Origin: Bacteroidia bacterium
Lineage (GTDB): Bacteria > Bacteroidota > Bacteroidia > M30B66
Assembly (NCBI GenBank): GCA_965279035.1
Contig: OZ257142.1
Span: 2,656,001-2,720,000, forward strand
Reading direction: 5' to 3'
DNA length: 64,000 nucleotides
Positions 4,711 to 26,313 of the stretch are shown piece after piece. A model generated the notes under the pieces. The model was given only the letters and a program-made list of their open reading frames with translations, made no database searches and was not told the origin of the DNA. The stretch's first letter is position 1. Each line of letters starts with the position of its first letter. The translations under genes and the position numbers were made by a program.

Positions 4711-6005
4711 TGCTTGGAAGGTATTACAGTATTGTGTGGATCTATTTTAGGATGCCCAAGAATTTCATCCAATTGTGCCTCTATTTCAGGTGTAATAACA
4801 TGTTCCATAGCTTCAGCATCATCATGCACATGATCGGGATCAAGATTTAAATATTGCTGTAAATAAAGTTCCCACAAACGATGTAAACGAACAATTCGAC
4901 GTGCTTCTACTTCTCCACCTAAACTCAAACTCCAAGCATGCAAGCTCATTGAAACAAGTCCCTTTTTCTCTAACAACTTTAATCCTTTATGAAGTTGACG
5001 ATTTGAAAATGCTCGGTAATTAATTAAATCTTCTTCCAAAACAGGTTTCAATGCATTGCCCGTTTTTTCTCCTATCTGATAAAATAGCTTCAATATATTT
5101 TCTTCTAAAGTTTTATTTCTGTTTTTTTCTTTCTCAAACCATTGTGCTAATAAACCTCTTTGGGGAGCAAATAACATCGACAATCCTGCAACAACAGTCG
5201 CTACTACAACGATCCATGGTCCTGTGGGCATAGCTGGAGCAGTATAAGAAACAAAGGCTCCCATATATCCCGAAAACATTCCAATAACCATAGCTAGAAA
5301 AAGAAGTTTCTGCATAGAATTGGTCCACAACCGAGCAGTTAAAGCGGGAGTAATTAACAAGGCCGACATAAGCACAACTCCAACGGCTTGAATGCCAACA
5401 GAAACAGCCCACACCGTAATAAACGACAATCCAAACCGAAGCATTTTTACAGGAAATCCTACCGAAATGGCAAATTCCTCATCAAAAGATATGGCTGTAA
5501 ATCCACGCAAAAAAAGAAAGAGTATTCCTAAAATGAGGATTGATGAAATAGAAAACAATTGAATGTCTTCCAAGGTAATTGAAGCGGCTTTTCCAAATAG
5601 AAATTTATCTAACCCAGCTTGTGATGCATTTCCACTGTGTTGAATAGATGTAAGTAAGACAATTCCAACCCCAAAAAAAACAGAAAGCATTAATGCAATG
5701 GCTGTGTCTGGACGAACTTGCTTGGAACGAGTAAGCGCCTCCATGATCATTAAGCTCAACATGCCACTTAAGATTGCTCCAATTAAAAAGTACAAGGGAT
5801 TTTTTTCTCCTGTTAAAATAAATGCCAAACAAACGCCAGGTAAAACACTATGCGAAATGGCATCTCCAACTAAAGCTCTCTTTCTCAAAAAAGTAAAACA
5901 GCCAACTATGGCAGCCATTCCACAAAGTATGATGGAACCAGCTACAACCAATCTCACATTGGGCTCACGTAAAAAAAAGAAATCGCTGAATACCTGCTCG
6001 TTCAT
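4707..6005 (-). CDS. mntC: Mn/Zn/Fe ABC permease fused to C-terminal DtxR/MntR-like metal-dependent repressor domain
   Basis: N-terminal ABC-3 permease (GDAISHSVLPG); C-terminal EENILKLFYQ...RLHRLWELYLQQYL...HVHDDAEAMEHVI...DPH, the DtxR winged-helix plus dimerisation/metal site pattern. Confidence 0.88.
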   Translation of the reverse strand: MNEQVFSDFFFLREPNVRLVVAGSIILCGMAAIVGCFTFLRKRALVGDAISHSVLPGVCLAFILTGEKNPLYFLIGAILSGMLSLMIMEALTRSKQVRPDTAIALMLSVFFGVGIVLLTSIQHSGNASQAGLDKFLFGKAASITLEDIQLFSISSILILGILFLFLRGFTAISFDEEFAISVGFPVKMLRFGLSFITVWAVSVGIQAVGVVLMSALLITPALTARLWTNSMQKLLFLAMVIGMFSGYMGAFVSYTAPAMPTGPWIVVVATVVAGLSMLFAPQRGLLAQWFEKEKNRNKTLEENILKLFYQIGEKTGNALKPVLEEDLINYRAFSNRQLHKGLKLLEKKGLVSMSLHAWSLSLGGEVEARRIVRLHRLWELYLQQYLNLDPDHVHDDAEAMEHVITPEIEAQLDEILGHPKIDPHNTVIPSKQ

Positions 6006-6787
6006 GTTTCGCGTACAGGAAAATTACGCTCTCTCAACTGATCCCCTACTTGAGATAAAACAGTCAACTTTCCACTATACGTAATTTTTAGATTTTCATC
6101 CGTAAATACATCTTTCAAAGGTCCATTGGCAATGAGTGATGCATTTAATAAAACTAACCAATCGAAATATTCAGGTGCTGTATGTAAATCATGATGTACA
6201 ACAATGATTGTTTTACCAGCAGCTTTCATTTTGCGCAACATTTCTACTATCGATTGTTCTGTTGCTGCATCAACTCCTACAAAAGGCTCATCAAGCAAGT
6301 ACAAATCTGCCTGCTGAGCCAAAGCTCTCGCTAAAAAAACACGTTGCTGCTGTCCTCCCGATAATTGTGAAATCTGTCGATTCGAATAAGTCAACATATT
6401 GACTTGCTCTAATGCTTCCCCTGCAATCTTTTTATCTTCTGTCGAAATTCGCTGAAACATTCCTCTTTGCTGATATCTTCCCATCAACACAACATCCAAT
6501 ACCGTTGCAGGAAAATCCCAATCGACTGTTTGACGTTGTGGAATATACGAAACGCGTTTGCGAACTTTAGTTAGTTCTTCGCCATATACACGTGCATATC
6601 CAGAATTTAAAGGAACCAATCCTAAAATTGCTTTTACCAAGGTTGATTTTCCGGCACCATTGGGTCCCATAATTCCAATGATTTGCCCTTGTGGCAATAA
6701 AAAATCAATATTCCATAATACCGGTTTACGATGGTAAATAACGGTTAAGTTATGTGCTTCAATCGATGGATTCTGTATTTCTGCCAT
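6002..6787 (-). CDS. mntB: Metal ABC transporter ATP-binding protein
   Basis: Walker A GPNGAGKST, signature LSGGQQQR, Walker B LLDEP, HHDL. Confidence 0.92.
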   Translation of the reverse strand: MAEIQNPSIEAHNLTVIYHRKPVLWNIDFLLPQGQIIGIMGPNGAGKSTLVKAILGLVPLNSGYARVYGEELTKVRKRVSYIPQRQTVDWDFPATVLDVVLMGRYQQRGMFQRISTEDKKIAGEALEQVNMLTYSNRQISQLSGGQQQRVFLARALAQQADLYLLDEPFVGVDAATEQSIVEMLRKMKAAGKTIIVVHHDLHTAPEYFDWLVLLNASLIANGPLKDVFTDENLKITYSGKLTVLSQVGDQLRERNFPVRET

Positions 6788-6789
6788 AC

Positions 6790-7710
6790 TTAACGTAATG
6801 CATTTGCAATTGTGTGAGCATTGTGTCGAAGCATACCTTTATAGGTTCCTTCTGGACTTCCTTTCTTGCCCATAGAATCGGAATAAAGTGTTCCACCAAT
6901 TCTAATTGGATGTCCTTTCGCAGCACAACCTTCTATAACTGCTTGTAATGATTTTTGAGAAACAGAACTTTCTACAAATACGGCTTTGATTTTCCTGTCT
7001 GTAATAAAATTGACCATGTTACTCACATCCTGCAATCCATATTCTGAAACGGTAGAAATTCCCTGCAATCCTTTCACTTCAATTTTATTTGTTAATCCAA
7101 AATAACGAAATGCATCATGCGATGTGATGAGGACTCTTCGATCTAAGGGAATAGTTTGAATAGCAATAAAAACTTCATCACGAACTTTATCTAATGTATC
7201 ACGATAAGCTCTATAATTTGAACCTATTTGACTGGTGTCATTTGGAAAAAGACCTTTTAGCGTATCGGTTGCTCCTCGAACTCCACTAAGCCAAACACTT
7301 GGATCCATCCAAAGATGTGGATCAATAGTTTGTGTTCCATCACCAGCAAGTTGAAGTAAATTTTCATTCACATATTCGCCAATTCCAATAACAGGTTTAT
7401 TACGACTCAATTTATGGAGTACATCAGCCATTTTACCTTCTAAATGATGACCACTATATAAAATAATATCCGCGTTGGAAAGTAAATTCATATCTCCTTG
7501 GGATGCTTTATATAAATGAGGATCAACACCGGGACCCATCAATACCTGTATTTCAACTAAATCTCCTAGAATATTTTGTGCGAAGTCGGCAACCATTCCT
7601 GTAGTTGCTACAACTTTCTTTTTACGGTTTGAAGAAGAATTTTGATTTGATGAACAGCCCGTTAATACTAGTACAAACAAAAAAAGCACTTTAACTAGAC
7701 GATGATTCAT
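6790..7710 (-). CDS. mntA: Metal ABC transporter substrate-binding lipoprotein (TroA family)
   Basis: Lipobox LTGC; GVDPHLY, DPHLW, SHDAFRYF, LYSDS metal-ligand motifs. ATG 7710 preferred over TTG 7716. Confidence 0.9.
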   Translation of the reverse strand: MNHRLVKVLFLFVLVLTGCSSNQNSSSNRKKKVVATTGMVADFAQNILGDLVEIQVLMGPGVDPHLYKASQGDMNLLSNADIILYSGHHLEGKMADVLHKLSRNKPVIGIGEYVNENLLQLAGDGTQTIDPHLWMDPSVWLSGVRGATDTLKGLFPNDTSQIGSNYRAYRDTLDKVRDEVFIAIQTIPLDRRVLITSHDAFRYFGLTNKIEVKGLQGISTVSEYGLQDVSNMVNFITDRKIKAVFVESSVSQKSLQAVIEGCAAKGHPIRIGGTLYSDSMGKKGSPEGTYKGMLRHNAHTIANALR

Positions 7711-7726
7711 TCTCAAGAATTTTCGA

Positions 7727-7734
7727 CAAAGATA
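7727..7734 (-). promoter_or_regulatory. -7 promoter element of metal ABC operon (TATCTTTG on minus strand)
   Basis: Exact TAnnTTTG match ending 16 nt upstream of ATG 7710. Confidence 0.6.
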
Positions 7735-7761
7735 GCTTTTTTACAATAGCCGAAATTAATT

Positions 7762-7777
7762 TTTAGACAAATCTAAA
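7762..7777. promoter_or_regulatory. Putative DtxR/MntR-family operator TTTAGA-CAAA-TCTAAA
   Basis: 6-4-6 palindrome just upstream of the metal transporter promoter; resembles TTTAG-N6-CTAAA MntR/SirR/TroR-type boxes. Confidence 0.65.
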
Positions 7778-7779
7778 TT

Positions 7780-8334
7780 TCAGGATTTCGGATAACCATT
7801 CTTTCGTTGAATGGAATCTAATTGACGCAGATGATGTATCAAATGCCAATATAAAAATCCAAGAGTTTGATCTGCAGTAAGAGCTCCTGCTAGGGGATGT
7901 TTAAATATCAAATTGGAATGTTGCTGCCAATGAAGAGTTTCAATAAATTCTCGTAATTGAATGAGTTGTTGCTTCCATTCGGCTTTTATTTCCTTTGAAT
8001 CATGAGCAATGGATTCTTCGATTATTTGTTTGGGTGTTTGAAATCGTTTAGGAAGAATCAAATTGAGTGTTAACAAAGCATACCGCCGTTTGTGTTTAAA
8101 TTGAGGTCGACTAAATTTTCCACTTTCAACTCGTTTCTTCATTGAAATTAAAGTGAGCCTTTCTACTTGAAAAAGGTGATCGTATACTTCCATAATTCCC
8201 CACGTTGAATCACTTGGTTTGAACTGTTGTTGATTCAACCTTAAATTATCCCATTTATTCAATAAAACACGAACAGCATTTTCATATCGAATTAATGATT
8301 TCAATAGCCGTTTATTATTTACCTTCAGATTCAA
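7780..8334 (-). CDS. DinB family protein
   Basis: FKPSDSTWGIMEVYDHL and HPLAGALT...HLIHHLRQ His-triad pattern; start codon uncertain (TTG). Confidence 0.8.
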   Translation of the reverse strand: MNLKVNNKRLLKSLIRYENAVRVLLNKWDNLRLNQQQFKPSDSTWGIMEVYDHLFQVERLTLISMKKRVESGKFSRPQFKHKRRYALLTLNLILPKRFQTPKQIIEESIAHDSKEIKAEWKQQLIQLREFIETLHWQQHSNLIFKHPLAGALTADQTLGFLYWHLIHHLRQLDSIQRKNGYPKS

Positions 8335-8839
8335 AACAACTGATATTTAACATTCTAAGGAAATTGATTTCTTATCAAAATACCCATTTAATTTAATTCA
8401 TTTACGCATGCATTCGACAAAATCTGCACACTTCTTTTTTTAAATCATGATACAATAAGCTTAAAAATTTAAATACCTAAATCAGGAATTTTATAGGTTT
8501 TCTAATTATCCTTTTATTCTTTTCAAAATAAATTAAACTTACATATATACTAGTATTTGAGTTTTACATTTTTATGGATAACTCAAATTAAAAGCATTCC
8601 ATTTTTAAACTAACTTGAAGAGTATAGCTTCTCACATTATTATGAAGATACTTCTAATTTATTTTTTAGATAAGGCCTAGATATAAATTTGAAATGAGCT
8701 ATTAAAATAATTCAATGTAATCTCTTTTATTCACCACGTTCATTCGAAACTTACATCTGTTTGATCTCTTGATGATCTTGCATTTATACGTTTTAAAGCT
8801 TAGGTAGTTTTGATTTCTTAATTGACCTAACTAATTACA

Positions 8840-9550
8840 ATGATGAACAAGTACTTATTTTCAATTGGATTGATTTCTTTGATTTCCGTCCAATATTCTT
8901 CTGCTCAATATTCGCCGAAATTAGCAGCACTCAATCAAAGTGTTGTTGCAATTCAAGGTTCAAAAACAGCTTCTTGTGGAACCTTTAGAACCATGGAATC
9001 TATGAAATATACCGATGGTGGTGATGCACGTGTTGTTCAAGTAAAAGTAGAACAACCTATCTGTGATAAACAACAAGGTGTTTTAGCATTATTAAATCCC
9101 TCTGGTGCTGATTGGAAATATAAAGTCATTCGCAAAGAAGGGACAATAGTTAGTGAGGGATTAGTAGGATATAATAGACGTATCGGAAGTTTAGAAACTG
9201 GTTCGTATCTCATTCAATTTACATTACCCGATGGAACATCAGCAGTTGATGAATTCACAGTCATTAAGCCCAATGCAATGATGTCAAGTATTGAAATGTC
9301 CAACAAAAACCAATACCTCAGTGGAAATGAACTTTCGTTCACTGCGATTAGCGAATCTGGTGCTGAATATATATGGGATTTTGGTGATGGCACGCAACCC
9401 ATATATGGTGAAAAACAAGTAAATCATAAATACTCGAAACCTGGAATCTATTCCATTGTGCTAACTGCCAATAATTTTGATTGCACTAGCATCGTCACAA
9501 AACAAGTAATTGTCACTGGACCAATTGCTCAAGGAGATTCTGAAAAATAA
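8840..9550 (+). CDS. Secreted PKD-domain protein
   Basis: Signal peptide; C-terminal YIWDFGDG...HKYSKPGIYSIVLTA PKD motif; no T9SS CTD visible. Confidence 0.75.
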   Translation: MMNKYLFSIGLISLISVQYSSAQYSPKLAALNQSVVAIQGSKTASCGTFRTMESMKYTDGGDARVVQVKVEQPICDKQQGVLALLNPSGADWKYKVIRKEGTIVSEGLVGYNRRIGSLETGSYLIQFTLPDGTSAVDEFTVIKPNAMMSSIEMSNKNQYLSGNELSFTAISESGAEYIWDFGDGTQPIYGEKQVNHKYSKPGIYSIVLTANNFDCTSIVTKQVIVTGPIAQGDSEK

Positions 9551-9565
9551 TAAAATCTCTTTGTG

Positions 9566-9605
9566 AAGCCGGCTTAACTATCATTGGATTAAGCCGGCTT
9601 TTTTT
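9566..9605 (+). terminator. Rho-independent terminator
   Basis: AAGCCGGCTTAA...TTAAGCCGGCTT followed by T tract. Confidence 0.8.
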
Positions 9606-9617
9606 CATCTTTGAAAG

Positions 9618-10529
9618 ATGAAATTATTAAAAGATCTATGTGCCGTTAGAGCTACTTCCGGAGATGAGGGCCCAATGAAGAAATTCCTGCTGGAATTTAT
9701 CCATCAAAATCAACATCATTGGAAAAACAAACCGCTAATCATAGAAAATGATGATTTGCAAGATTGTCTGTTACTCGTTTTTGGAAAGCCTCGAACTGTC
9801 ATCTTTGCTCATATGGATTCAATTGGATTTACCGTCCGATATAAGAATCAATTGGTAAAGATTGGAGGACCAAGAACCGTTAATGGTTATGCTCTGGTTG
9901 GTGAAGATTCTAAAGGTGAAATAGATTGCATCCTTTCGGTGGATGATGACGGTGAACTGAATTCTATATTTCACCGAACAATAGATATTGGAACTCCGCT
10001 TTCTTTTAAACCTGATTTTCGAGAAACATCAAGCCAAGTCCAATGTTGTTACATGGATAACCGACTAGGAATTTATTCCGCTTTAAAAGTAGCAGAAACA
10101 CTCGAAAATGGAATTATTGCTTTTTCATGTTGGGAAGAACATGGTGGAGGTTCGGTAAATTATATAGCCGATTTTATCTTTAAGAAATACAAGGTAAGAC
10201 AAGCTCTCATTTCTGATATTACATGGGTTACAGAAGGTGTTAAAGCTGGTAAAGGTGTTGCAATTTCAATTCGAGATTCTGGAATTCCAAGAAGATCATA
10301 CGTAAATAAAATTCGTGAGCTAGCCATTGAATCTAAAATTCCATTTCAATTGGAAGTGGAAGGAAGTGGAGGAAGCGATGGTACAGAATTGCAAAAAGGT
10401 CATTTACCTTTTGATTGGTGTTTTATTGGTGCTCCAGAAAAAAATGTCCATACCCCGGATGAAACCGTTCATAAAAAAGACATTCAAAGCATGATTGAGA
10501 TGTATCATTTTTTAATGAAACGTTTGTAA
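9618..10529 (+). CDS. M42-family metallo-aminopeptidase
   Basis: AHMDSIG, MDNRLG, WEEHG, SDI, GGSDG, HTPDE zinc-ligand motifs. Confidence 0.85.
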   Translation: MKLLKDLCAVRATSGDEGPMKKFLLEFIHQNQHHWKNKPLIIENDDLQDCLLLVFGKPRTVIFAHMDSIGFTVRYKNQLVKIGGPRTVNGYALVGEDSKGEIDCILSVDDDGELNSIFHRTIDIGTPLSFKPDFRETSSQVQCCYMDNRLGIYSALKVAETLENGIIAFSCWEEHGGGSVNYIADFIFKKYKVRQALISDITWVTEGVKAGKGVAISIRDSGIPRRSYVNKIRELAIESKIPFQLEVEGSGGSDGTELQKGHLPFDWCFIGAPEKNVHTPDETVHKKDIQSMIEMYHFLMKRL

Positions 10530-15075: not shown

Positions 15076-17265
15076 CTATCGAACAAGTACAACTATTCCA
15101 GTATAAACATGTTCCGTGTTAAAGACGTCTTTAATCCAAAGTTTGTAATTATAAACACCTGTTTCTGATGGCTTTTTCCCTTCATTGGCTCTTCCATCCC
15201 ACTCTTCTGAATATGTGTTAGTCTGAAAAATTTCGACTCCCCATCGATCAAAAATAATCATGCGATAGGTTTTAAATCCTTCTCCTTTCGGGCTAAACGT
15301 TTCATTTATTCCATCACCATCGGGAGTAAATGCATTGGGTATATAACAAGTATAAATAGGATCAATACGAATTCTAATTTTTGAAGTATCATAACATCCT
15401 ACTTCATTCACTGCGATTATTTTGGCTTTATACCATCCAGTGTCAGTATAGGTGTATGTAATATTAGGATCATCTTGAATATCTCCATTTCCAGGATCTA
15501 ACCAACTTCCCGAATTCTCAGATGATAAATCAAAAAAAGTAATATTAGGTGTTAAAATACTCGCCTGGCGTGGATTTGCATCAATGCCAGCTAAAGGTCG
15601 AGGACGAATTTGAATAAATCCTGGATACGTTGTTTGAATTGTATCTGTACAACCAATAATATTTTGGACGGTTAATGATAAATCATAAATACCTGGTTCG
15701 GTATATATATGTGTTGGATTTGCTAATGTAGAAGTAGAACCATCGCCAAAATCCCAATAAAACAACGCACCGGGAGAGTAGTTTGAAAGATTTTGAAAAA
15801 CCAAGTTAGCAGGCTCACATGCATTTTGATTATTAACTGAAAAATCGACCGTTAACATTCCATAAACAGTTACTAAGACTGTATCGTGATCTTCGCAATG
15901 TGGATCGGTAATCGTTAAATAAACAGGCCAAATTCCTGGTTCAGACCAAACTACATTTTGTGGATTTTGTAAAGTAGATGTTGAAATGGATGCGGGACCT
16001 GTAAATTCCCATTGAAACGTTGCATTACTTTCGTACTGCCCAGATGCTTGAAATGAAAATGAGTTTGTTGAGATGCATTGAGGTGCTTGTTCGGGTATAA
16101 TTGCATCAATTTTTCGATAAACAGCAATATTTAAAAATGCTGTATCAGCGCAGGAATAACCTGGATTCGCAATAAGTAAAACAGTAAATTGACCTGAATC
16201 TGGATAAGAGTAAACAGGATTTGTTAATGTACTTACATCAGAAGTAATCCCAGCAACCCCAAAATCCCATAGATAATTGGCTGCATTCGTACTTTGATTT
16301 ACAAAACTAGCTTGCAAACCATTACATAAAGATGTTCCACCATTTATGTCACTTAATGGTGCTTCAAATTCTGCTAATGTAGTATTCCCACATTGAACTA
16401 CATTAAATTGAAAATCCCGTTTATTTACACTTAGCAATACACCATTACGGTATTCACTCACACACACGGCAACAACATATTGTCCAAGCTGAGTTGGATA
16501 AGCTGTTAGCATACCTGTAGCCGGATCAATACTTGCTTGTGGTGTTGAAGGCATTGGATTCGTAGCAGAATACGGACTAGAAAAACTAACAAAATTATAG
16601 GGTGGACCTGCCGGTGGAATTGGCATTGGGACATCTGGTGTAGCACCCTCAAATGGATCACAAAGAGAATACACAAGAACATCCCCATCAGGATCTGTTG
16701 CTGAATGATTAAAATTCAAATGATCATTAATACACAAAACGATAGGAGGAAAACCATTGTAACGCGGACTCGAATTACAGGATGTCCAAGCAGATTCAGG
16801 AATGTGTGCTACATATGTAGCTCCAGTATCACCCGGATTGTTAAGATTTAAAATCGATTGGTTTCTACAACAACGTTGGTAAACTAAAGTATAACCACCA
16901 GGATAAGAAGGCAATGAGACAACTTCAGAATAAATACATTCTTCAACACACACATTAGCAGCATCTTGAAAACATGGATTAATATTGATTGGAGGAATCA
17001 AATGACTCCCGGGATAAATCATTTCAACATTTCGAACAAATCCTCCATTCGAATTGTAAACTGCCACATTAGCTGGACTATCATATGGCGCTTGACCATT
17101 TAAGCAATCACGATATAATTTCAATGTGATTCGAAATTGTCCATTTCCTAGACAATCATAATATATTTCTCCTCCTATAATATGTGTAGCTTTAAGCAAA
17201 CCTGAATTAGGCAGCTGAATAAAAAAGAATAAAATAATCAGTAAAAATCTGATCATTAGTAACAA
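15076..17265 (-). CDS. PKD-domain protein with T9SS type B CTD
   Basis: N-terminal THIIGGEIYY...LYRDC, YQRCCRN; WDFG PKD motifs; IPNAFTPDGDGINE...FDRWG...WDG. Start could be ATG 17256. Confidence 0.85.
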   Translation of the reverse strand: MLLMIRFLLIILFFFIQLPNSGLLKATHIIGGEIYYDCLGNGQFRITLKLYRDCLNGQAPYDSPANVAVYNSNGGFVRNVEMIYPGSHLIPPININPCFQDAANVCVEECIYSEVVSLPSYPGGYTLVYQRCCRNQSILNLNNPGDTGATYVAHIPESAWTSCNSSPRYNGFPPIVLCINDHLNFNHSATDPDGDVLVYSLCDPFEGATPDVPMPIPPAGPPYNFVSFSSPYSATNPMPSTPQASIDPATGMLTAYPTQLGQYVVAVCVSEYRNGVLLSVNKRDFQFNVVQCGNTTLAEFEAPLSDINGGTSLCNGLQASFVNQSTNAANYLWDFGVAGITSDVSTLTNPVYSYPDSGQFTVLLIANPGYSCADTAFLNIAVYRKIDAIIPEQAPQCISTNSFSFQASGQYESNATFQWEFTGPASISTSTLQNPQNVVWSEPGIWPVYLTITDPHCEDHDTVLVTVYGMLTVDFSVNNQNACEPANLVFQNLSNYSPGALFYWDFGDGSTSTLANPTHIYTEPGIYDLSLTVQNIIGCTDTIQTTYPGFIQIRPRPLAGIDANPRQASILTPNITFFDLSSENSGSWLDPGNGDIQDDPNITYTYTDTGWYKAKIIAVNEVGCYDTSKIRIRIDPIYTCYIPNAFTPDGDGINETFSPKGEGFKTYRMIIFDRWGVEIFQTNTYSEEWDGRANEGKKPSETGVYNYKLWIKDVFNTEHVYTGIVVLVR

Positions 17266-17317
17266 AATAAATTCAAAAAAAGAAACAACTAATGTACTCT
17301 GTTTTAATAAAGAACAA

Positions 17318-19435
17318 TCATCTAATTACTGAAACTCTACCAATAAATTGTTCTTTCTCAAGTGTTGGTTTGGTAAGTATTACTTTGTATGCATATACAT
17401 CAATAGGAATTCGATCAAGCACTCCCCTTACTCCTGTACCCCATTTTTTATCATAATCATCCGTATGGAAAATTTCCTCTCCCCAACGATTGTATATATA
17501 CATTTCAAAGGAAACAAAACCTTCTCCCAATCCCGAAAAACTATCATTTAGTCCATCCCCATCTGGTGTGAATGCATTAGGAATATAAAAACTGAAAGGT
17601 GGATATGATTTTATAGGATTACTAACGGTGTCTTTACATCCATATATATTAGTAGCAATCAATTGAACATTAAATTTTCCAGTATCTGGAAACGTATACA
17701 ATGGGTTTTGATCATTCGATTCACCTATTCCATCTCCAAAATCCCAGTTCCATACATTCACTTCTGGATAGGATAAATCAGTAAATTGGATAGTAGAGTG
17801 TTCAAAGTATTGAAGAGTATATAAAGCATGTATTTCACGAACATTAACAGTCATCGATTTGGAAATTTTTATTCCACAACTATCTGTAACTGACAAATAA
17901 TAACTAGTTGATTCCATAGGCTTTACAAATCTATCTAGATTTTGCAAGCTACTATTATCCAACCAAGAATATACAAAAGGCGCTTTGCCCCCCGTTGAAT
18001 AACCAATTAAATGTGCTTCCTTCCCTTTGCAAATAGTAGTATCATTAGATAAATACAATTTCATTTTAGTATAATTCAAAATATTGGCAAGTATAGAATC
18101 ACTAGCTACTGAACCACATTGATCTGTAGCTGTTACAACATACCATGTTGAAGAATCTGGATATACTGTTATAGGATTGCCAATGGTTTGCCCAATCCAA
18201 TTTATAGAATATGGTGAAACTCCGCCAGTTACTACAGCATTTAAATTCACAGGTGTTAATGGACAAATTAATGTTACATTCTGTCCCGGATCAACATCTA
18301 AAAGTGGTGGAGGATCATATATAAAAAAATCAACTCGCTTAATTTCTATTGTTGTACAACCTGTATCTCGGTAAATGATGGAAACCGTTTCACCTCCCGA
18401 TTCTGTGATATTATCGGGTAAGGCAAAAATATTAAAATCAACCTCGCTTTGACCAGGTTGAAATGTGATTGTAGTTGGAAAGGTTGAATAGTCAGTTCCA
18501 AATTGAGCTGAACCAGCATGTTCTAAATAAATTGTTAGAGCTTCGTTTGTTGAACCAGTTCTTTTTAAAATAATCTTATTATTTCCACAGCTTTCATAAA
18601 TAACATCGGATCCATTTATATAACTCGGCTTTTGTTCAATTGTAACTTCAGGAGATGAGAAACTGGAGGATTCTAAAAAAACAGCTGAATCATAAATTCC
18701 ATCCTTTACGTCAGCAATAACTAAAGTAATGGTATATGTTTGACAGGGAATAACTGTTGCTTGAGCAATAAATGGTTTAGTAAATCCATCAAATTGAACG
18801 GTTGGCCCTCCCCCATTTATTCCATTTCCATTATCAATATAGTAGGATGCAAAACTTCCCGAATTGATGTTATTGATTGCTACAGGTAAATTTGTTCCAG
18901 GGATAAGAGCAATATTTTGAGCACCTGTAATACCGGGACCTTGGATAAAGAAAGCAAATGCATCATTAAATTCAGAACCTACAAATTCTGGATATTCTTC
19001 GGAAGCAAAAACATATTTAAATTGAACTTTATCGCTTTCACAAAAGAAATTGAATCGTAAAACAGCAGCATCTTTAGATTCTACATTCCCACCTAAGAGT
19101 TGTTCTATTTGAGCATTACCACCAACCGACAAATCTTGACCAGAACTGGGAGTGTTGTTGGGTCCTGGTGCATCTTGAATTATGCCAGTACTCATAATAA
19201 CACCTGAAGTTAAACCGATATTTGAATTTGTTCCATCAAAACGGCCCAACATAGAAGATGAGCCATTAAATGTAATATTCGAAACTGTAACACCAGAACC
19301 AACTAATACATTTTGTACTAAAGTGGAAGCATTTTGTTGGTTAACAATTAACTGGGCATTTGTAAAAGCAGGAACCAACAGCAAAATTGCTGAGATTGTT
19401 TGAAGAATTATGTTGCTTTTACCGTTTGAACCCAT
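17318..19435 (-). CDS. Choice-of-anchor L domain protein with Calx-beta-like and PKD domains and T9SS type B CTD
   Basis: LVQNVLVGSGV, YVFASEEYPEFVGSEFNDAFAFFI, NIALIPGT, FDGFT, IADVKDGIYDSAVF; IPNAFTPDGDGLND...YNRWG. Confidence 0.88.
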   Translation of the reverse strand: MGSNGKSNIILQTISAILLLVPAFTNAQLIVNQQNASTLVQNVLVGSGVTVSNITFNGSSSMLGRFDGTNSNIGLTSGVIMSTGIIQDAPGPNNTPSSGQDLSVGGNAQIEQLLGGNVESKDAAVLRFNFFCESDKVQFKYVFASEEYPEFVGSEFNDAFAFFIQGPGITGAQNIALIPGTNLPVAINNINSGSFASYYIDNGNGINGGGPTVQFDGFTKPFIAQATVIPCQTYTITLVIADVKDGIYDSAVFLESSSFSSPEVTIEQKPSYINGSDVIYESCGNNKIILKRTGSTNEALTIYLEHAGSAQFGTDYSTFPTTITFQPGQSEVDFNIFALPDNITESGGETVSIIYRDTGCTTIEIKRVDFFIYDPPPLLDVDPGQNVTLICPLTPVNLNAVVTGGVSPYSINWIGQTIGNPITVYPDSSTWYVVTATDQCGSVASDSILANILNYTKMKLYLSNDTTICKGKEAHLIGYSTGGKAPFVYSWLDNSSLQNLDRFVKPMESTSYYLSVTDSCGIKISKSMTVNVREIHALYTLQYFEHSTIQFTDLSYPEVNVWNWDFGDGIGESNDQNPLYTFPDTGKFNVQLIATNIYGCKDTVSNPIKSYPPFSFYIPNAFTPDGDGLNDSFSGLGEGFVSFEMYIYNRWGEEIFHTDDYDKKWGTGVRGVLDRIPIDVYAYKVILTKPTLEKEQFIGRVSVIR

Positions 19436-19581: not shown

Positions 19582-20958
19582 ATGAGTGATATGAAAACGC
19601 TGGTAGACCAGAACAAAGACCGATTTTTAGCCGAATTATTTGAACTTTTACGCATTCCATCGGTAAGTGCAGATCCAAAATACAGTGCTGATGTTTTGCG
19701 CACTGCCGATTCTGTTCGAGATCATTTAATCAAAGCAGGTGCTGATAAAGTTGAAGTTTGCTCAACCGCTGGTTTTCCCATTGTATATGGTGAAAAAATC
19801 ATCGATCCTGCTTTACCAACCATATTAGTTTATGGTCATTACGATGTTCAACCAGCAGATCCAATTAATTTGTGGACTTCCCCCCCATTTGAACCTGTTA
19901 TTCGTGATGGAAATATTTTCGCCAGAGGTTCGGCCGATGACAAAGGTCAAATGTTCATGCATGTAAAAGCTTTTGAATTAATGCTTCAACATAATCAACT
20001 TGCTTGCAATGTTAAATTTATGATTGAAGGGGAAGAAGAAGTTGGATCATCTAATCTAGATACCTTCCTTGTTAATAATAAAGAACGTTTAAAAGCCGAC
20101 TGTGTATTGGTTTCTGATACATCGATGTTAGCGAATGATATTCCCTCTATCACAACAGGTTTACGTGGTTTGAGTTATGTAGAAGTTGAGGTAACAGGTC
20201 CAAATAGAGATTTGCATTCAGGTGTATATGGTGGAGGAGTTGCTAATCCAGTCAATGTACTATGTACAATGATTGCTTCGTTACATGATGAAAACCGACA
20301 TATCACCATTCCCGGTTTTTACGATAATGTAATGGAACTCAGTACCGTTGAACGTGCCATGATTGCAGAAGCGCCGTTTAGTCAAGACGAATACAATGCT
20401 GAATTGAAAATCAATGATGTATTAGGTGAAAAAGGATACACAACTGTGGAACGCACTTCAATTCGTCCAACATTAGATGTAAATGGAATTTGGGGTGGAT
20501 ATACTGGAGAAGGAGCTAAAACCGTTCTACCATCAAAAGCATTTGCAAAAATATCAATGCGCTTAGTTCCAAATCAAACACCTGATGAAATCACTGCCTT
20601 GTTTCAAAAACATTTTGAAAGCATAGCCCCTGCAAGCGTGAAAGTAAAAGTAAGTCCACATCATGGTGGATTTCCTGCAGTAACACCTGTTGATTCGGTT
20701 GAATATCGTGCTGCTGCAAAGGCAATGGAAACAACGTTTGGTAAACAACCCATTCCTGCTCGTGGTGGAGGAAGTATTCCAATTGTAGCTTCATTTGAAA
20801 AAATACTGGGTTTAAAAACTGTATTAATGGGATTTGGATTAGACACCGATGATATTCATTCACCCGATGAACATTATGGAGTGTTTAATTATTTGAAAGG
20901 AATAGAAACGATTCCCTACTTTTACAAATACTACGCTGAAATGAAATCAGCTAAATAA
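19582..20958 (+). CDS. M20-family dipeptidase (Dug1/CNDP-like)
   Basis: YGHYDVQP, RGSADDKG, EGEEE, DLHSG, GGSIP, HSPDE. Confidence 0.92.
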   Translation: MSDMKTLVDQNKDRFLAELFELLRIPSVSADPKYSADVLRTADSVRDHLIKAGADKVEVCSTAGFPIVYGEKIIDPALPTILVYGHYDVQPADPINLWTSPPFEPVIRDGNIFARGSADDKGQMFMHVKAFELMLQHNQLACNVKFMIEGEEEVGSSNLDTFLVNNKERLKADCVLVSDTSMLANDIPSITTGLRGLSYVEVEVTGPNRDLHSGVYGGGVANPVNVLCTMIASLHDENRHITIPGFYDNVMELSTVERAMIAEAPFSQDEYNAELKINDVLGEKGYTTVERTSIRPTLDVNGIWGGYTGEGAKTVLPSKAFAKISMRLVPNQTPDEITALFQKHFESIAPASVKVKVSPHHGGFPAVTPVDSVEYRAAAKAMETTFGKQPIPARGGGSIPIVASFEKILGLKTVLMGFGLDTDDIHSPDEHYGVFNYLKGIETIPYFYKYYAEMKSAK

Positions 20959-20965
20959 AATAAAC

Positions 20966-20998
20966 TCCAGGCAGGAAAGCACCAATTTTCTGCCTGGA
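20966..20998 (+). terminator. Stem-loop after dipeptidase (terminator or mRNA-stabilising hairpin)
   Basis: TCCAGGCAGGAAA...TTTTCTGCCTGGA; no clear T tract, 14 nt before the next ATG. Confidence 0.45.
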
Positions 20999-21012: not shown

Positions 21013-21888
21013 ATGATCAGAAAATCGATTGCTTTTATATTTTCTGGAATTCTCCTGATAAGTGCTTGTAATAAAAAGGAGGAGAAATTAATCACTGGAA
21101 ATAAACCTCCACCAGATAATACCATTCCATCAAGTTTGCAGGTTGGCTTTATTAATAAAGCATATATCAGTATTCTAGGACGTGAACCAGATACTGATGA
21201 ATTCAATTCTGCAAAGTCTATTTTAGATCAAACTCAATTTTCTGAAAATTCCCGTAAAAACGTTATTAGTCAAATACTTACTAATGATGAATTTTATGAT
21301 CGTGAATTTGAAATTTATCGGAACGACTTATTAAATAGTACCGATACGATTCAAATAACAGATATGATTAATACGTTTGAGTTTCTACTTACTAGTCCCG
21401 CTTATGAGGCTCAATGGCCATTTATTCAAATTGAACTTACTCGTTTACAAGCATTACGAGCAGTTCCAATGGGCTTGAGAAATGGAACAGTTACATTGAA
21501 AGAAATGCATAAACGCTGTGTAGATAATTACTTCTTTGATCAAATTAATATGGGATCGCTCAATTTTGTCATTGCTACTTTCCAGCATTTGCTATTAAGA
21601 AATCCAACAGAATTTGAAAAAAGTGAAGGAGTGAAAATTATTGATGGGTTTAATGGAATATTATTTCTTCAAATTGCTCAATCGAAAAATGAATATGAAA
21701 GCATTTTTTTCAATTCTGATGCATATTATGAAGGACAGATAAAATTGAGTTTTTATCGATTCTTATTGCGCTTACCTACTTCTGAAGAAACTGCTTATTA
21801 CACAAATAAGTTGAAAGCGAATTCGGATTACAAATCAATTCTGGCTGAAATTCTTAGTAGTGATGAATTTGCCGGTTTAACAAACTAA
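21013..21888 (+). CDS. Uncharacterised lipoprotein with three helical (G)R-x-P-T/D-x-x-E repeats (DUF4214/DUF1549-1553-like)
   Basis: Lipobox ISAC then NKKEE; repeats YISILGREPDTDE, FQHLLLRNPTEFE, FYRFLLRLPTSEE; LTNDEF and LSSDEF ends. Confidence 0.65.
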   Translation: MIRKSIAFIFSGILLISACNKKEEKLITGNKPPPDNTIPSSLQVGFINKAYISILGREPDTDEFNSAKSILDQTQFSENSRKNVISQILTNDEFYDREFEIYRNDLLNSTDTIQITDMINTFEFLLTSPAYEAQWPFIQIELTRLQALRAVPMGLRNGTVTLKEMHKRCVDNYFFDQINMGSLNFVIATFQHLLLRNPTEFEKSEGVKIIDGFNGILFLQIAQSKNEYESIFFNSDAYYEGQIKLSFYRFLLRLPTSEETAYYTNKLKANSDYKSILAEILSSDEFAGLTN

Positions 21889-21892
21889 ATCC

Positions 21893-22375
21893 ATGAAGAA
21901 GATCCTTGTTTTCTGTTTAGTTGTTCTGATATTCCAATCCTGTAAAAAAGAAACGGAGTACATCTATGAGGTTGATTCAACTCAAGTTGAGAAAGATCAA
22001 ACCAATAAAGACATTTCAAAAAGCACCATTGAGTTTTTGTCTATAGCATATTCAGACATTTTTGGTTCAACCATTACTCAAAACCAATTGAATCGTTTAT
22101 CACTGCTTTATTTAGCATTTGGAGATAAGAAACTATTAGAGGATTTACTCATCAAGAATATGATTAATCGTCCGGAATCTCAATTGCCAAGTAATGCCAC
22201 TATGCGTGCTGATGTTGCTGCCTATGTGAAAAGCACTTATATCAAACTGTTTAACCGTGAACCAAACGAATTGGAAGCTTATACTTTGAAGAAAAATATT
22301 GATGAAAATGCCGATTTGACTTCCGTTATGGTTTACTATTCCATGATGACTTCTGACGAATACCGATACTACTAA
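21893..22375 (+). CDS. Uncharacterised lipoprotein, related helical repeat
   Basis: Lipobox FQSC then KKETE; YIKLFNREPNELE...MTSDEYRYY matches the repeat in the previous gene. Confidence 0.65.
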   Translation: MKKILVFCLVVLIFQSCKKETEYIYEVDSTQVEKDQTNKDISKSTIEFLSIAYSDIFGSTITQNQLNRLSLLYLAFGDKKLLEDLLIKNMINRPESQLPSNATMRADVAAYVKSTYIKLFNREPNELEAYTLKKNIDENADLTSVMVYYSMMTSDEYRYY

Positions 22376-22378
22376 ACT

Positions 22379-23692
22379 ATGTCGAATTACATCCCAAGAA
22401 GAAGCTTCCTGAAAAGGACCGCCCTGGCTACTGCAGCAACAATTGCTGCTCCTTACATATTACCGAGCGGGCGTTTGTTTGCATCGTCGGGAAGCCGAGT
22501 AGCAAATCATGTTGTATTTTGTTTATTTGCAGGTGGAATTAGAAACATTGAGTCTGTTGATATGCAACGTGGCAATTTAATGCCTCGCAGTTTAACAGGC
22601 GCGGGTTCAGTTGCTCCTAGTATTGCAGCTGGTGTTGATCCATTACCCAATTTCAATGGTACATCGCTTCAAGCTCAAGCAACATTATTTCGTGAATTCC
22701 GCTATGCACAAGGACCAACAGGACATTTCAACGGACATTCTACTGCACTTACCGGCAATTACACTTTACAAGATTTGAGTATAAAAGAGGCACCTAAAAT
22801 GCCTACCATTTTTGAATATTATCGTAAACACAACAGTCCATCACAAACAGCATTAAATGCTTGGTGGATTTCGAATTCACTTGGTCCCTACCCTTCATTA
22901 AATTATAGTTCCTATCCAGGATATGGAGCTCTTTACGGAGCCAATTATGTTCAACCATTAACATTGATAAGTGGTGATGGCTTAGATGCATTGTCCAATC
23001 CACAAATCTTCAGTCAAGCTGAAAAAACCAAAATAAATTCACTTCGTAATTTTTTCAATGACAGTTTTTCAAAAAGCGGTCAATATGGAAATGCAGGAGT
23101 TGACAATGGATTAATTGATAGAGATCCAGTTCAGGAATTTCTAAGACAGGAATTAATAACAGCAGGAAATGGCGGTTATACAGATCCTTGGGGAGTTGGT
23201 ACAAGTATGAATGGTGATATGTATAATGTTTATTTCACCGAACGCATTATTCAAACATTCAAGCCTGAGTTAACTGTTGTGAATATGCAAGGAGTAGATG
23301 TATGCCACTCCAATTTTACTGAATATTGTAATAATCTTCGAAAAGCCGACTATGCCGTTGGGCATTTATGGGAAACCATTCAAAACACGCCGGGGATGGC
23401 AAATGATACGATATTAATTGTTGTACCAGAACATGGACGAAATTTACAACCGAACACCTTGATAGATCAATTTGGAAATGCTGCTATAGATCATACAAGT
23501 GATGATACTTCGCGAGAGATTTTCTGTTTGGTGGTTGGTCCTCCTGGTAAAGTGGTTCAAAACCAAAATATAACACAGGTTACTGGAGAAAGCATCGATG
23601 TAGTTCCTACTATTGCTCATATTCTTGGCTTCCATGATGAAATTCCTGGAGGTTTGCTTAATGGGCGAATCTTAAATGAATCGTTTGTATGA
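22379..23692 (+). CDS. Tat-exported DUF1501-like / alkaline-phosphatase-superfamily protein
   Basis: Twin-arginine PRRSFLK; HVVFCLFAGG, GHFNGH, DVCH, TILIVVPEHGRN, DH, DVVPTIAHILG pattern of the AlkP core fold. Confidence 0.7.
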   Translation: MSNYIPRRSFLKRTALATAATIAAPYILPSGRLFASSGSRVANHVVFCLFAGGIRNIESVDMQRGNLMPRSLTGAGSVAPSIAAGVDPLPNFNGTSLQAQATLFREFRYAQGPTGHFNGHSTALTGNYTLQDLSIKEAPKMPTIFEYYRKHNSPSQTALNAWWISNSLGPYPSLNYSSYPGYGALYGANYVQPLTLISGDGLDALSNPQIFSQAEKTKINSLRNFFNDSFSKSGQYGNAGVDNGLIDRDPVQEFLRQELITAGNGGYTDPWGVGTSMNGDMYNVYFTERIIQTFKPELTVVNMQGVDVCHSNFTEYCNNLRKADYAVGHLWETIQNTPGMANDTILIVVPEHGRNLQPNTLIDQFGNAAIDHTSDDTSREIFCLVVGPPGKVVQNQNITQVTGESIDVVPTIAHILGFHDEIPGGLLNGRILNESFV

Positions 23693-24633
23693 AAAAGCAA
23701 ATTCTCGTTTTCCTTTCAATTGGTATAGCTGGAATCCTCTTGATTAATTCTTGTAAAAAAGATGAACCTGTTCCAGTAAATCCATACGATTCGATTAATT
23801 ATGGTGACGATACTCCAGAACCCGATACCGTTGACCCTGCTTCCTTAGTTGGTTTGCATCGTAATTTGTTTTTGACAAGATGTGCATTACCTGGATGTCA
23901 CGATGGTGTTTTTGAACCCGATTTCCGTACTATTCAAAGCACCTATTCAACCATGGTTTATGCGCCTGTTAAAAAGAATAATGCAGCCAATTCATTTACT
24001 TATCGTGTAGTTCCAGGTGATACTGCTATGTCGGTTTTGTATGAACGTATTACGAATTGCTGTTTTGTAAATGAAGACGATCGTATGCCTCAGGATAATA
24101 TAGGTACAGCATTGCCAGCATCCGATATTCAACATGTTGGTCAATGGATTATGAATGGAGCAAAAAACGTAGATGGAGAAGTTTCTACTCGTCCCGATTT
24201 AGAACCAGTTGTTCAATATTATTTCGCTGCAAATTCCACGTTTGATATTGAACTTTCGGCTGAAACGAATCGGTTAGACAGCTTAATCTACAATCCTTTT
24301 TACATTCCAAGTGGAACAAGTAGTTTTTATATAGCCGTTCCTGTTACTGATGATATTACACCTACAGGTGAATTATTAGTCAATAAACTTTACTTGAGTA
24401 CAAGTCAAGATAATTTTGCTGGAGCTATCATGTTAACTGCCACCTTTTTTAATATTCCTGGACAAGATCCTATTTGGCTCGTAACTGTTCCAACTTCAGG
24501 ATTAACAGCAGGTGCTCAATATTTCATGAGGTATTATGTAAATGATGGACATCATGCTCAAAACACTGAATTTCCAGAAACGACAAGTAATCCATTTTAC
24601 AAATCCTATTGGAGTTTTATTCTTCAACCTTAA
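23689..24633 (+). CDS. Lipoprotein with putative monoheme cytochrome c domain (CX4CH, distal Met) and C-terminal beta-rich domain
   Basis: Lipobox INSC then KKDE; CALPGCH at 23881-23901; VVPGD...SVLYERI...RMP...HVGQWIMNGA resembles planctomycete-type cytochrome c domains. Confidence 0.65.
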   Translation: MKKQILVFLSIGIAGILLINSCKKDEPVPVNPYDSINYGDDTPEPDTVDPASLVGLHRNLFLTRCALPGCHDGVFEPDFRTIQSTYSTMVYAPVKKNNAANSFTYRVVPGDTAMSVLYERITNCCFVNEDDRMPQDNIGTALPASDIQHVGQWIMNGAKNVDGEVSTRPDLEPVVQYYFAANSTFDIELSAETNRLDSLIYNPFYIPSGTSSFYIAVPVTDDITPTGELLVNKLYLSTSQDNFAGAIMLTATFFNIPGQDPIWLVTVPTSGLTAGAQYFMRYYVNDGHHAQNTEFPETTSNPFYKSYWSFILQP

Positions 24634-24637
24634 TTGT

Positions 24638-25081
24638 ATGAAAAAGCTATTAAGCCTACTCCTACTTTCGCTTGTTTTAGTTTCGTGTAAAAAGGATGAT
24701 GAAGTTGAAATAACATCCACACCCAACATCACATTTAAAAGTATCAGTCCGGGAACCATTAAAGAATTTAAAGATTCGGTAGTTATTGGCATTGAGTATA
24801 CTGATGGAGATGGTGATTTAGGTGAAAATGGAACCGGAATTGAAAATGCCTTTGTTACTGACACTCGAACTAATCTTCTCTATACGTTTAGAATACGTCA
24901 ATTGGCTCCTGATAATGCGAATATCATAATTCGCGGTAATTTGAATATTGTAGTACCATCCATAGGATTATTAAATTCAAGTTCGACAAGTGAAAGTGCC
25001 ACATTCCAAGTTTATATTAAAGATCGGGCTGGCCATTCGAGCAATACAGTAACGACAAGCAGCGTTACAGTTGTGCCTTGA
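24638..25081 (+). CDS. Uncharacterised lipoprotein with DGDGDLG motif
   Basis: MKKLLSLLLLSLVLVSC-KKDDE; YTDGDGDLG; YIKDRAGHSSN. Start taken at ATG 24638 rather than the ORF-track 24542. Confidence 0.7.
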   Translation: MKKLLSLLLLSLVLVSCKKDDEVEITSTPNITFKSISPGTIKEFKDSVVIGIEYTDGDGDLGENGTGIENAFVTDTRTNLLYTFRIRQLAPDNANIIIRGNLNIVVPSIGLLNSSSTSESATFQVYIKDRAGHSSNTVTTSSVTVVP

Positions 25082-25109
25082 TTTTTTCTAAACAATCGGG
25101 TTAAATCGG

Positions 25110-25580
25110 ATGAATAAACTCCTTCAGTTAATTACGTTAAGTTGCGTTTTACTCGTTTGTTCTTGTTCGAGTTATGATCAAGTAACTGCTCCAACTGTAA
25201 GTGGTATCTCGGGATTTAAGATTGGGAAGCTGTCAGAAGGAAAACTTCCTTTAAGTTTCAATACAACCTTAAAAAATCCTGACAAACTTAAGTTTCATGT
25301 GAAACGAGTAAATCTGGAATTGATATTCGCAGGTGTGCGTGTGGCTGAGTTGAAGTCGGAACGCAAAATGAAAATTCGTCGACAAATTGAACCTGAACTT
25401 CATTGGGAAGTGACTGCCGAACTAGCACCATTACTCAAAAAACCGGGTGCATTATTAGGGACGTTATTTCGTGGTAAAATTGATTTCGAAGTGAGTGGTA
25501 CCATGACCATTGGCAAATTTCTTTGGTCAAAAACAGTTCCTGTGAAATTGAAATTACCGGTGGAGATTCCTGTGTTTTGA
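25110..25580 (+). CDS. LEA_2/WHy-domain-like lipoprotein
   Basis: Lipoprotein signal ending CSC; LKNPDKLKFHVKRVNLELIFAG...FEVSGTM beta-sandwich pattern. Confidence 0.6.
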   Translation: MNKLLQLITLSCVLLVCSCSSYDQVTAPTVSGISGFKIGKLSEGKLPLSFNTTLKNPDKLKFHVKRVNLELIFAGVRVAELKSERKMKIRRQIEPELHWEVTAELAPLLKKPGALLGTLFRGKIDFEVSGTMTIGKFLWSKTVPVKLKLPVEIPVF

Positions 25581-25860: not shown

Positions 25861-26313
25861 ATGGCAAAATCATCTGAAACCTTTAATAAAAAAGAGAACG
25901 AGAAAAAACGCTTGAAGAAGAAGAAGGATAAAGAGCAGAAAAAAGAAGATCGAAAAGCGAATGAGGGAAAAGCGAAGAGCTTTGATGATATGATTGCTTA
26001 TGTAGATGAAAATGGAAATTTAACTTCTACTCCTCCCGATCCATCTAAAAAACGAGTGGTCAATATTGAAGAAATTCAAATTGGTGTTGCTAAAAAAGAA
26101 GAACAAGAAGCAGAGGATTTATTGAGAAAAGGAACTGTTTCATTTTTCAATACATCGAAAGGATATGGTTTTATTAAAGACCACGTGAGTCAGGAAAGCA
26201 TTTTTGTACATATCAACGGTTTGGTTGATTCCATTAAAGAAAACGATAAAGTAACGTTTACTACAGAGCAAACTCCCAAAGGAAAAAGTGCGGTGGATGT
26301 GAAGTTAGCTTAA
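25861..26313 (+). CDS. Cold-shock domain protein, Bacteroidota long form with basic N-terminal extension
   Basis: MAKSSETFNKKENEKKRLKKKKDK; RNP motifs KGYGFI and IFVH. Confidence 0.9.
   Translation: MAKSSETFNKKENEKKRLKKKKDKEQKKEDRKANEGKAKSFDDMIAYVDENGNLTSTPPDPSKKRVVNIEEIQIGVAKKEEQEAEDLLRKGTVSFFNTSKGYGFIKDHVSQESIFVHINGLVDSIKENDKVTFTTEQTPKGKSAVDVKLA

Follow-up and report, generated by a model that had tools for sequence, protein, structure and literature searches.

A cassette of five adjacent genes, A to E, in a 64,000-nucleotide stretch of a Bacteroidia bacterium genome (contig OZ257142.1, positions 2,656,001 to 2,720,000 of the forward strand; hereafter the window) stands about an even chance of encoding a single membrane-anchored enzyme complex of the cell envelope with a redox function. 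In such a complex, C would be a twin-arginine translocation (Tat) signal protein of alkaline phosphatase (AlkP) fold, with a predicted His-rich metal site and a His in the nucleophile's place; A and B would be two halves of a helical protein acting as a scaffold for C; D would carry electrons away from C's site; and E would be an accessory subunit. The redox reading draws on site residues, export route and partners that have all changed together, and on a cytochrome neighbour that persists while varying in type. The genes of the cassette and one accessory neighbour, F, are as follows (window coordinates).

A, 21013–21888, plus strand: 291 residues; helical-repeat lipoprotein of the DUF4214 / phycobilisome-linker type
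B, 21893–22375, plus strand: 160 residues; lipoprotein
C, 22379–23692, plus strand: 437 residues; Tat-signal protein, alkaline phosphatase superfamily, remodelled site
D, 23689–24633, plus strand: 314 residues; lipoprotein with a PSCyt1-like domain and an immunoglobulin (Ig)-like beta-sandwich
E, 24638–25081, plus strand: 147 residues counted from the ATG at 24638; lipoprotein
F, 25110–25580, plus strand: 156 residues; LEA_2 lipoprotein, accessory neighbour

A conserved cassette and a remodelled phosphatase-fold site

All six open reading frames run in the same direction and are spaced, from A to F, by 4, 3, −4 (an ATGA overlap), 4 and 28 nt, as an earlier note on this DNA had described. Of the six-gene system proposed there, A–E (21013–25081) hold as a conserved unit, but F does not; it is found in only 13 of the 69 loci with room for it and was rejected as a core part. 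The loci come from a pattern scan in which each species was represented by one genome and which yielded 388 stretches with a C relative; the best 80, all titled as Bacteroidota metagenome-assembled genomes, were kept. Being the closest loci, they tilt the counts toward conservation, and presence counts take in only loci with room for the gene in question. In these loci C is flanked by A (74/74), B (76/76), D (78/78) and E (75/75), and the order A-B-C-D-E is fixed throughout. The median junctions A-B, B-C, C-D and D-E are 1, 11, −1 and −1 nt, and C proteins share 54–95% identity. The tight junctions and the order kept across 80 loci argue against a chance arrangement, and the co-occurrence in other genomes on which the earlier note had staked its proposal is observed as linkage of A–E in the closest Bacteroidota loci. 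Rows that were broken, truncated or mis-started were excluded from the alignments of A (one, L065), B (two) and E (five), as were three open reading frames from two loci for D.

Among seven more distant copies, five have all five genes, and two are second copies within genomes already holding one; the entire cassette is duplicated in two genomes. The L112 copy (5307–9258) has no E match and apparently lacks the lipid anchors on A and D, and the L115 copy (6814–9855) has no A match and a D cut down to its cytochrome domain. Large genes directly follow E in five distant copies, and the single one scanned encodes CUB and PKD domains and a CHU_C tail of the type IX secretion system (T9SS). Full-length C is present in 6 of 401 sampled Bacteroidota genomes, including the centre genome, which was picked because it has C, and full-length D is present in the same six. 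Of the six proteins, only A (DUF4214) and F (LEA_2; 28.4 bits against a cut-off of 25.4) pass a Pfam gathering cut-off, and an NCBIfam scan of A–F gave nothing above cut-off. No transporter recurs beside the cassette in the 80 loci. We found no paper on this cassette in a literature search whose coverage mostly excluded subscription journals.

The AlphaFold2 model of C (predicted local distance difference test score, pLDDT, 89.4) gave 456 Foldseek matches at E≤0.001, and those listed all belong to the alkaline phosphatase superfamily (sulfatases, NPP and AP; E values down to 1.6e-11, identity at most 17%); a PDB sequence search with C gave nothing significant. C has the core alpha/beta fold of the superfamily, but not its Ser/Thr/Cys(formylglycine) nucleophile or its first metal Asp. 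Specifically, G52 replaces the metal Asp and H116 stands at the nucleophile position in 78 of 78 C proteins; D307, H310, E351 and H372 are equally invariant, H352 is kept in 77 of 78, and R55, D280 and R354 are also invariant. Five His residues are thus invariant or nearly so (116, 120, 310, 352 and 372), and helix 116–125 of the model begins at H116. The site was mapped through an intact-site family (below), whose alignment with C puts G52 on the first metal Asp and H116 on a Thr; in a weak alignment, this Thr in turn matches ENPP1 Thr256, which we take to be the nucleophile. C carries the Tat motif RRSFL in the window and RRx[FL][LIMV] in 76 of 78 relatives, an assignment by motif match that falls below the Pfam cut-off. 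No Cys occurs in the first 40 residues of any of the 42 relatives checked, and C has no lipobox.

The nearest family to C is an unnamed, NPP/iPGM-like one (alignment A13), homologous over the full length (profile probability 99.9, E 9e-34), which shares PTIFEY and the DxxH/H metal site with C. This intact-site family retains Asp46 and the Thr nucleophile, whereas C has Gly and His; its Tat motif count is 0/20, against 76/78 for C, and several members carry T9SS tails. Fifteen of its loci showed no match to A, B, D, E or the fused scaffold described below, 14 of them within 1.5-kb flanks. The two site changes, Asp to Gly and nucleophile to His, coincide with Tat export and a cytochrome partner.

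The earlier note had called C a DUF1501-like Tat protein. The Tat motif, AlkP fold, site pattern and gene context speak for this description; against it, C misses the DUF1501 (PF07394) gathering cut-off of 27 bits, with DUF1501 unlisted even at E≤1, and the intact-site family is much closer. Among relatives, DUF1501 was found in 1 of 42 close ones at E 0.02, and, of 46 distant ones scanned from 150 listed, in 2 just above cut-off and in 7 at E≤0.01. A motif set derived from two DUF1501 alignments (GG, His nine residues before T, D-x-H, EFGR, DH) is present in C with D-x2-H and EHGR variants; the C-terminal motifs align by hhalign, and the N-terminal His is matched by motif spacing only. Profile probabilities against DUF1501 are 59–70 for C, 96.6 for a broader C alignment, 78–90 for the distant C clade and 1–6 for the intact-site family, scores that come from alignments of unequal depth and do not separate common descent from convergence. 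By these comparisons, C is DUF1501-like, intermediate between the intact AlkP family and DUF1501, and not a DUF1501 member. A C-family protein is also encoded on plasmid pREB3 of the cultured cyanobacterium Acaryochloris marina (NC_009928.1, L146 7872–9050), where its gene adjoins that of a membrane protein, near DUF1326 and DUF2182 genes, with no scaffold and no cytochrome.

The split scaffold and the putative cytochrome

Metagenomes scanned with an alignment of four distant C relatives yielded at least 415 relatives, of which 80 loci were kept (L160–L239; GC 57–76%). In this GC-rich clade, a single scaffold gene matching both A and B lies just upstream of the C homologue in 51 of 60 loci with room (two of the nine lacking it do show such a gene on inspection), and a multiheme cytochrome gene follows the C homologue in 54 of 58. 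Of 45 multiheme partners with nine or more motifs, 36 have ten CxxCH; the partner carries LVIVD repeats, some with EF-hands. A fusion of MtrAB porin type was considered for the ten-heme partner and dropped, as Pfam gives LVIVD and EF-hands and no porin. This module shares with the cassette a C homologue of the same family (probability 100) and the order scaffold, enzyme, cytochrome; it differs in its undivided scaffold, in a ten-heme LVIVD cytochrome in place of D, in lacking an E match, and in having EFGR (76/77) where the cassette C has EHGR. For the distant C proteins, His at the nucleophile position is read from alignments of 12 and 4 sequences. Clear examples are L163 5875–11147 and L174 5790–11986, with EF-hands fused or adjacent. 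We found no paper on a module of fused scaffold, C homologue and multiheme or LVIVD cytochrome.

A aligns to residues 5–213 of the fused scaffold, its N-terminal two thirds (probability 99.0), and B to residues 217–335, its C-terminal third (97.9). Since the two map end to end, they correspond to one protein cut in two, and, judged by these alignments, A and B are a single scaffold split into halves, each with its own lipid anchor. A and B also share a repeat (probability 87). A passes the cut-off of DUF4214 (PF13946; 33.6 bits against 23.2), and its PDB matches by sequence are phycobilisome-linker repeats only. Within the A family, DUF4214 is found at E≤0.05 in 64 of 69 proteins and PSD1, weakly, in 23 of 69. 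Neither protein reaches the Pfam cut-off of DUF1549/DUF1553 (PSCyt2/PSD1) or DUF1800 (PSD1 in A, 12.7 against 28.5 bits; none in B). The N-terminus of the fused scaffold resembles DUF1549 (probability 84.3), with PSCyt2 above cut-off in three of eight scanned, and a fused A+B profile finds DUF1800-type neighbours (E 3e-6 to 0.05; 15 hits in 1,050 reading frames), in support of the split scaffold proposed in the earlier note, A and B together equalling one fused protein that resembles both families. A aligns poorly with the fused protein of the type found in the Planctomycetes–Verrucomicrobia–Chlamydiae (PVC) superphylum (probability 7.6). Complex prediction for A, B and C scored 0.81 for C as partner, and a control with A replaced scored 0.82, so the result is not used for or against binding.

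D is likely a monoheme c-type cytochrome, judging from its sequence. A C65-x4-C70-H71 motif (CX4CH) is present in 76 of 76 D proteins, followed by invariant M133-P134 and W153-I154-x-x-G157. They correspond to the heme motif, the Met-Pro on the distal side and the WIxxGA of the C-terminal helix in PSCyt1 and class I cytochromes c, and hhalign relates D to the PSCyt1 domains of canonical modules with probabilities of 97.6 and 97.9, in line with the PSCyt1-type, cytochrome c-like lipoprotein of the earlier note. The PSCyt1-like domain spans about residues 50–160 and is followed by the Ig-like beta-sandwich; the model (pLDDT 93) has helices at 53–65, 116–122 and 144–155. Cytochrome c maturation genes (PF01578, PF03100) occur in all five cassette-bearing genomes tested. 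An Atlas score of 0.89 for D as a cytochrome serves as a lead only, as does FoxE (E 0.11) in a PDB sequence search with D that gave nothing significant. A Cys-Cys pair at residues 124–125, just before the Met-Pro loop, is found in 39 of 76 D proteins.

CX4CH is not specific to the cassette: 14 loci with shorter D-like matches hold 18 motifs, and 16 of these are of this form. L246–L259 hold short or multi-domain Bacteroidota proteins with a CX4CH PSCyt1-like domain outside the cassette, and at E≤1e-8 the D profile matches in 64 of 401 genomes. A search for CxxCH alone would overlook such proteins. Five distinct proteins combine the scaffold with PSCyt1-like domains and a PKD domain in one chain. 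Their cytochrome domains score 97.5 against PSCyt1 and 19.5 against D, and carry His-Gly-Gly at D's Met-Pro position; the case for D as their direct orthologue is correspondingly weak. One of them (L233 161–2602, the same protein in L234; 813 residues) has three cytochrome-like repeats, with the motifs CX2CH, CX3CH and CX4CH in that order, followed by PKD and finally the scaffold.

E has a conserved acidic loop, YxDGDGDLG, with no Pfam family above cut-off and no PDB match by sequence. E was also considered as a detached counterpart of the PKD domain in the fused proteins, an origin that was rejected (probability 0.7).

Cell location, proposed mechanism and alternatives

A conserved Cys closes a hydrophobic leader in A (69/69), B (75/75), D (76/76), E (71/71) and F (14/14), in accord with the five lipoproteins reported earlier. 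The residues after this Cys are NKKEE in A, KKETE in B, KKDEP in D, KKDDE in E and SSYDQ in F, and the KK(D/E) stretch noted in four of them is present in A, B, D and E, in A shifted by one. Surface export works best with C-X-K-(D/E)2 and a net negative charge, and a KKEVE sequence was exported poorly (PMC5080379). D and E of the window match this signal, A is shifted by one, B resembles KKEVE and F has none. The strict signal occurs in A 20/69, B 1/75, D 20/79 and E 29/71, against a crude background of 1 in 19 lipoprotein families, and K at +3 occurs in A 68/69, B 62/75, D 59/79 and E 67/71, against 9 of 19. Surface exposure, which the earlier note had thought possible, finds support in the KK(D/E) residues and in the signals of D and E, yet is doubtful, given that C lacks a lipid anchor and the signal of B is weak. 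For the parts to cooperate, either the whole set must face the periplasm or the partners must carry C outward; with real doubt, we favour the former. Heme of c-type is attached in the periplasm and C has neither an anchor nor a second export signal, which makes the periplasmic side the most likely.

Modules of DUF1501 with PSCyt1, PSCyt2 and PSD1 (PF07635/PF07583/PF07587) are abundant in Planctomycetes and Verrucomicrobia; they were of unknown function in the PVC superphylum in 2012 (PMC3542564) and still without a function in 2017 (PMC5615132). The PVC module and the cassette share a Tat-exported AlkP-fold protein with GG for DG, a His at the nucleophile-equivalent place and D-x(1-2)-H, E-[FH]-G-R and D-H, as well as a PSCyt1-type domain and a partner of helical repeats whose start resembles DUF1549. 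They differ in that the cassette divides the partner into three lipoproteins, uses a CX4CH heme motif, shows no second heme motif in A and B, and has in E a protein without counterpart; C, moreover, lies below the DUF1501 cut-off and far nearer to intact AlkP enzymes. Pairs of DUF1501 and DUF1800 (PF08811; PMC5122149) have the same enzyme motif pattern (probability 59–64 against C) but comprise two genes only, with no heme motif in the pair examined. The earlier note presented the cassette as a Bacteroidota version of the Planctomycete module. It is not the sole such version; Bacteroidota also have canonical pairs of DUF1501 with a fused cytochrome, as well as DUF1501–DUF1800 pairs, so the cassette is a separate lineage and not a stand-in. 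Figure S14 of PMC3542564 includes some Bacteroidetes loci, which could bear on novelty.

In the proposed complex, the proteins would bind one another, as their gene context suggests, and D would bind heme. C would hold metals through H116/E351/H352 and D307/H310/H372, and might oxidise a small anionic substrate, such as a phosphorus or sulfur oxyanion or ester, instead of hydrolysing it through a covalent intermediate. The strict linkage of A–E, the presence of full-length C and D in the same six genomes, the duplication of the whole cassette and the cytochrome c maturation genes speak for the complex, and two further patterns point this way. The intact family has Asp/Thr, no Tat motif and no partner match in its loci, against Gly/His and Tat export in the C family; and the cytochrome neighbour is kept while its type shifts among monoheme D, the multiheme protein of the distant loci and PSCyt1-like fusions to the scaffold. 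AlkP-fold enzymes can oxidise phosphite as a side activity (PMC12704751), and the phosphite oxidation of PhoA, although weak, offers a precedent for redox chemistry on this fold. Should C prove to be a dedicated redox enzyme, a thoroughly studied hydrolase fold would have a new use.

Several observations weigh against such a complex. No D protein (0/76) gives a PSCyt1 (PF07635) match at E≤0.05, and none has the canonical CxxCH; the listed Foldseek matches of the D model are all beta-sandwiches fitting its C-terminal half, with no cytochrome among them. PhoA phosphite oxidation depends on the normal active-site residues, which are changed in C (PMC12704751 for PhoA). The cytochrome is not universal, since in DUF1501–DUF1800 pairs the enzyme pattern recurs with a related scaffold and no heme motif was seen. 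Parts are missing in some relatives: L115 has no A, L112 no E, and the Acaryochloris plasmid copy neither scaffold nor cytochrome. The absence of partners from the intact family rests, for all loci but one, on 1.5-kb flanks. Finally, the enrichment of export-signal-like residues in A, D and E argues against an all-periplasmic set of parts.

The strongest alternative, which we consider unlikely but serious, is that C is still a hydrolase or phosphotransferase, working through a phospho-His at H116 or a metal-activated water, with A and B localising it and the cytochrome sensing redox state or keeping the metal reduced. The family nearest to C is phosphoesterase-like, with an intact site and with NPP and iPGM as relatives, the listed fold matches of C are all hydrolases or transferases, one complete metal site (D307, H310, H372) is kept, and DUF1800-type modules have no heme motif. 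However, all 78 C proteins have lost both the Thr nucleophile and the first metal Asp, and the ten-heme partner of the distant clade would exceed a sensor's need. Quite improbable, in our judgement, is a surface redox complex acting on extracellular polymers or minerals, in which the lipoproteins are flipped outward and carry C with them. K at +3 is enriched in A, B, D and E over background lipoproteins, D and E of the window fit the optimal signal (PMC5080379), and the distant copies have a large T9SS-type protein after E in the one scanned and similarly large genes in four more. The strict signal in B (1/75), whose KKETE resembles the poorly exported KKEVE, stands against it, as do the missing lipobox of C, the apparent loss of the lipid Cys from A and D in L112, and fused scaffold relatives that are not Bacteroidota-type lipoproteins. 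Very unlikely, too, is that C is non-catalytic for organic substrates and captures a metal or oxyanion whose redox state the complex alters for uptake, storage or detoxification: the lost nucleophile, the five His residues, the acidic loop of E, the EF-hands of the distant multiheme partner and the occurrence of DUF1800 proteins in metal-mineralising vesicles of Entotheonella (PMC12981691) would fit, but no recurrent transporter accompanies the cassette, and R55, D280 and R354 may mark a substrate pocket.

Beyond the redox complex itself, we tentatively suggest, as a possibility on the doubtful side, that the C lineage links ordinary AlkP-fold hydrolases to DUF1501, and that C and DUF1501 proteins together would form an unrecognised class of periplasmic oxidoreductases on the AlkP fold with interchangeable cytochromes. 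Its members would be scaffold-bound, Tat-exported and His-for-nucleophile, and would use CX4CH monoheme, PSCyt-fused or ten-heme cytochromes. The cassette divides this type of DUF1501–cytochrome module into small parts, and C and D are confidently modelled; if the class is real, its small separate subunits would make the cassette the easiest member to solve.

Neighbouring genes

A gene for an M20 peptidase lies directly or nearly upstream in 26 of 61 loci with room, and was rejected as a core part on this count. The window copy is an M20 dipeptidase at 19582–20958 (NF006053; 554.7 bits against a cut-off of 441). A 13-pair hairpin at 20966–20998 fills most of the 54-nt gap between this gene and A, ending 14 nt upstream of the A start and thereby leaving hardly any space for a promoter; it could act as a processing site or as a weak terminator that is read through. 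A scan for promoters did no better than chance (24 found, 27.5 expected). Divergent from the M20 gene, two large secreted proteins are encoded at 15076–19435 on the minus strand, presumably of CHU_C type, going by a motif; relatives occur in 25 of the 80 loci, and L085 10689–14267 is grouped with these large secreted proteins. Downstream of F, positions 25861–26313 encode a cold-shock domain protein whose N-terminus is extended by a long lysine-rich stretch.

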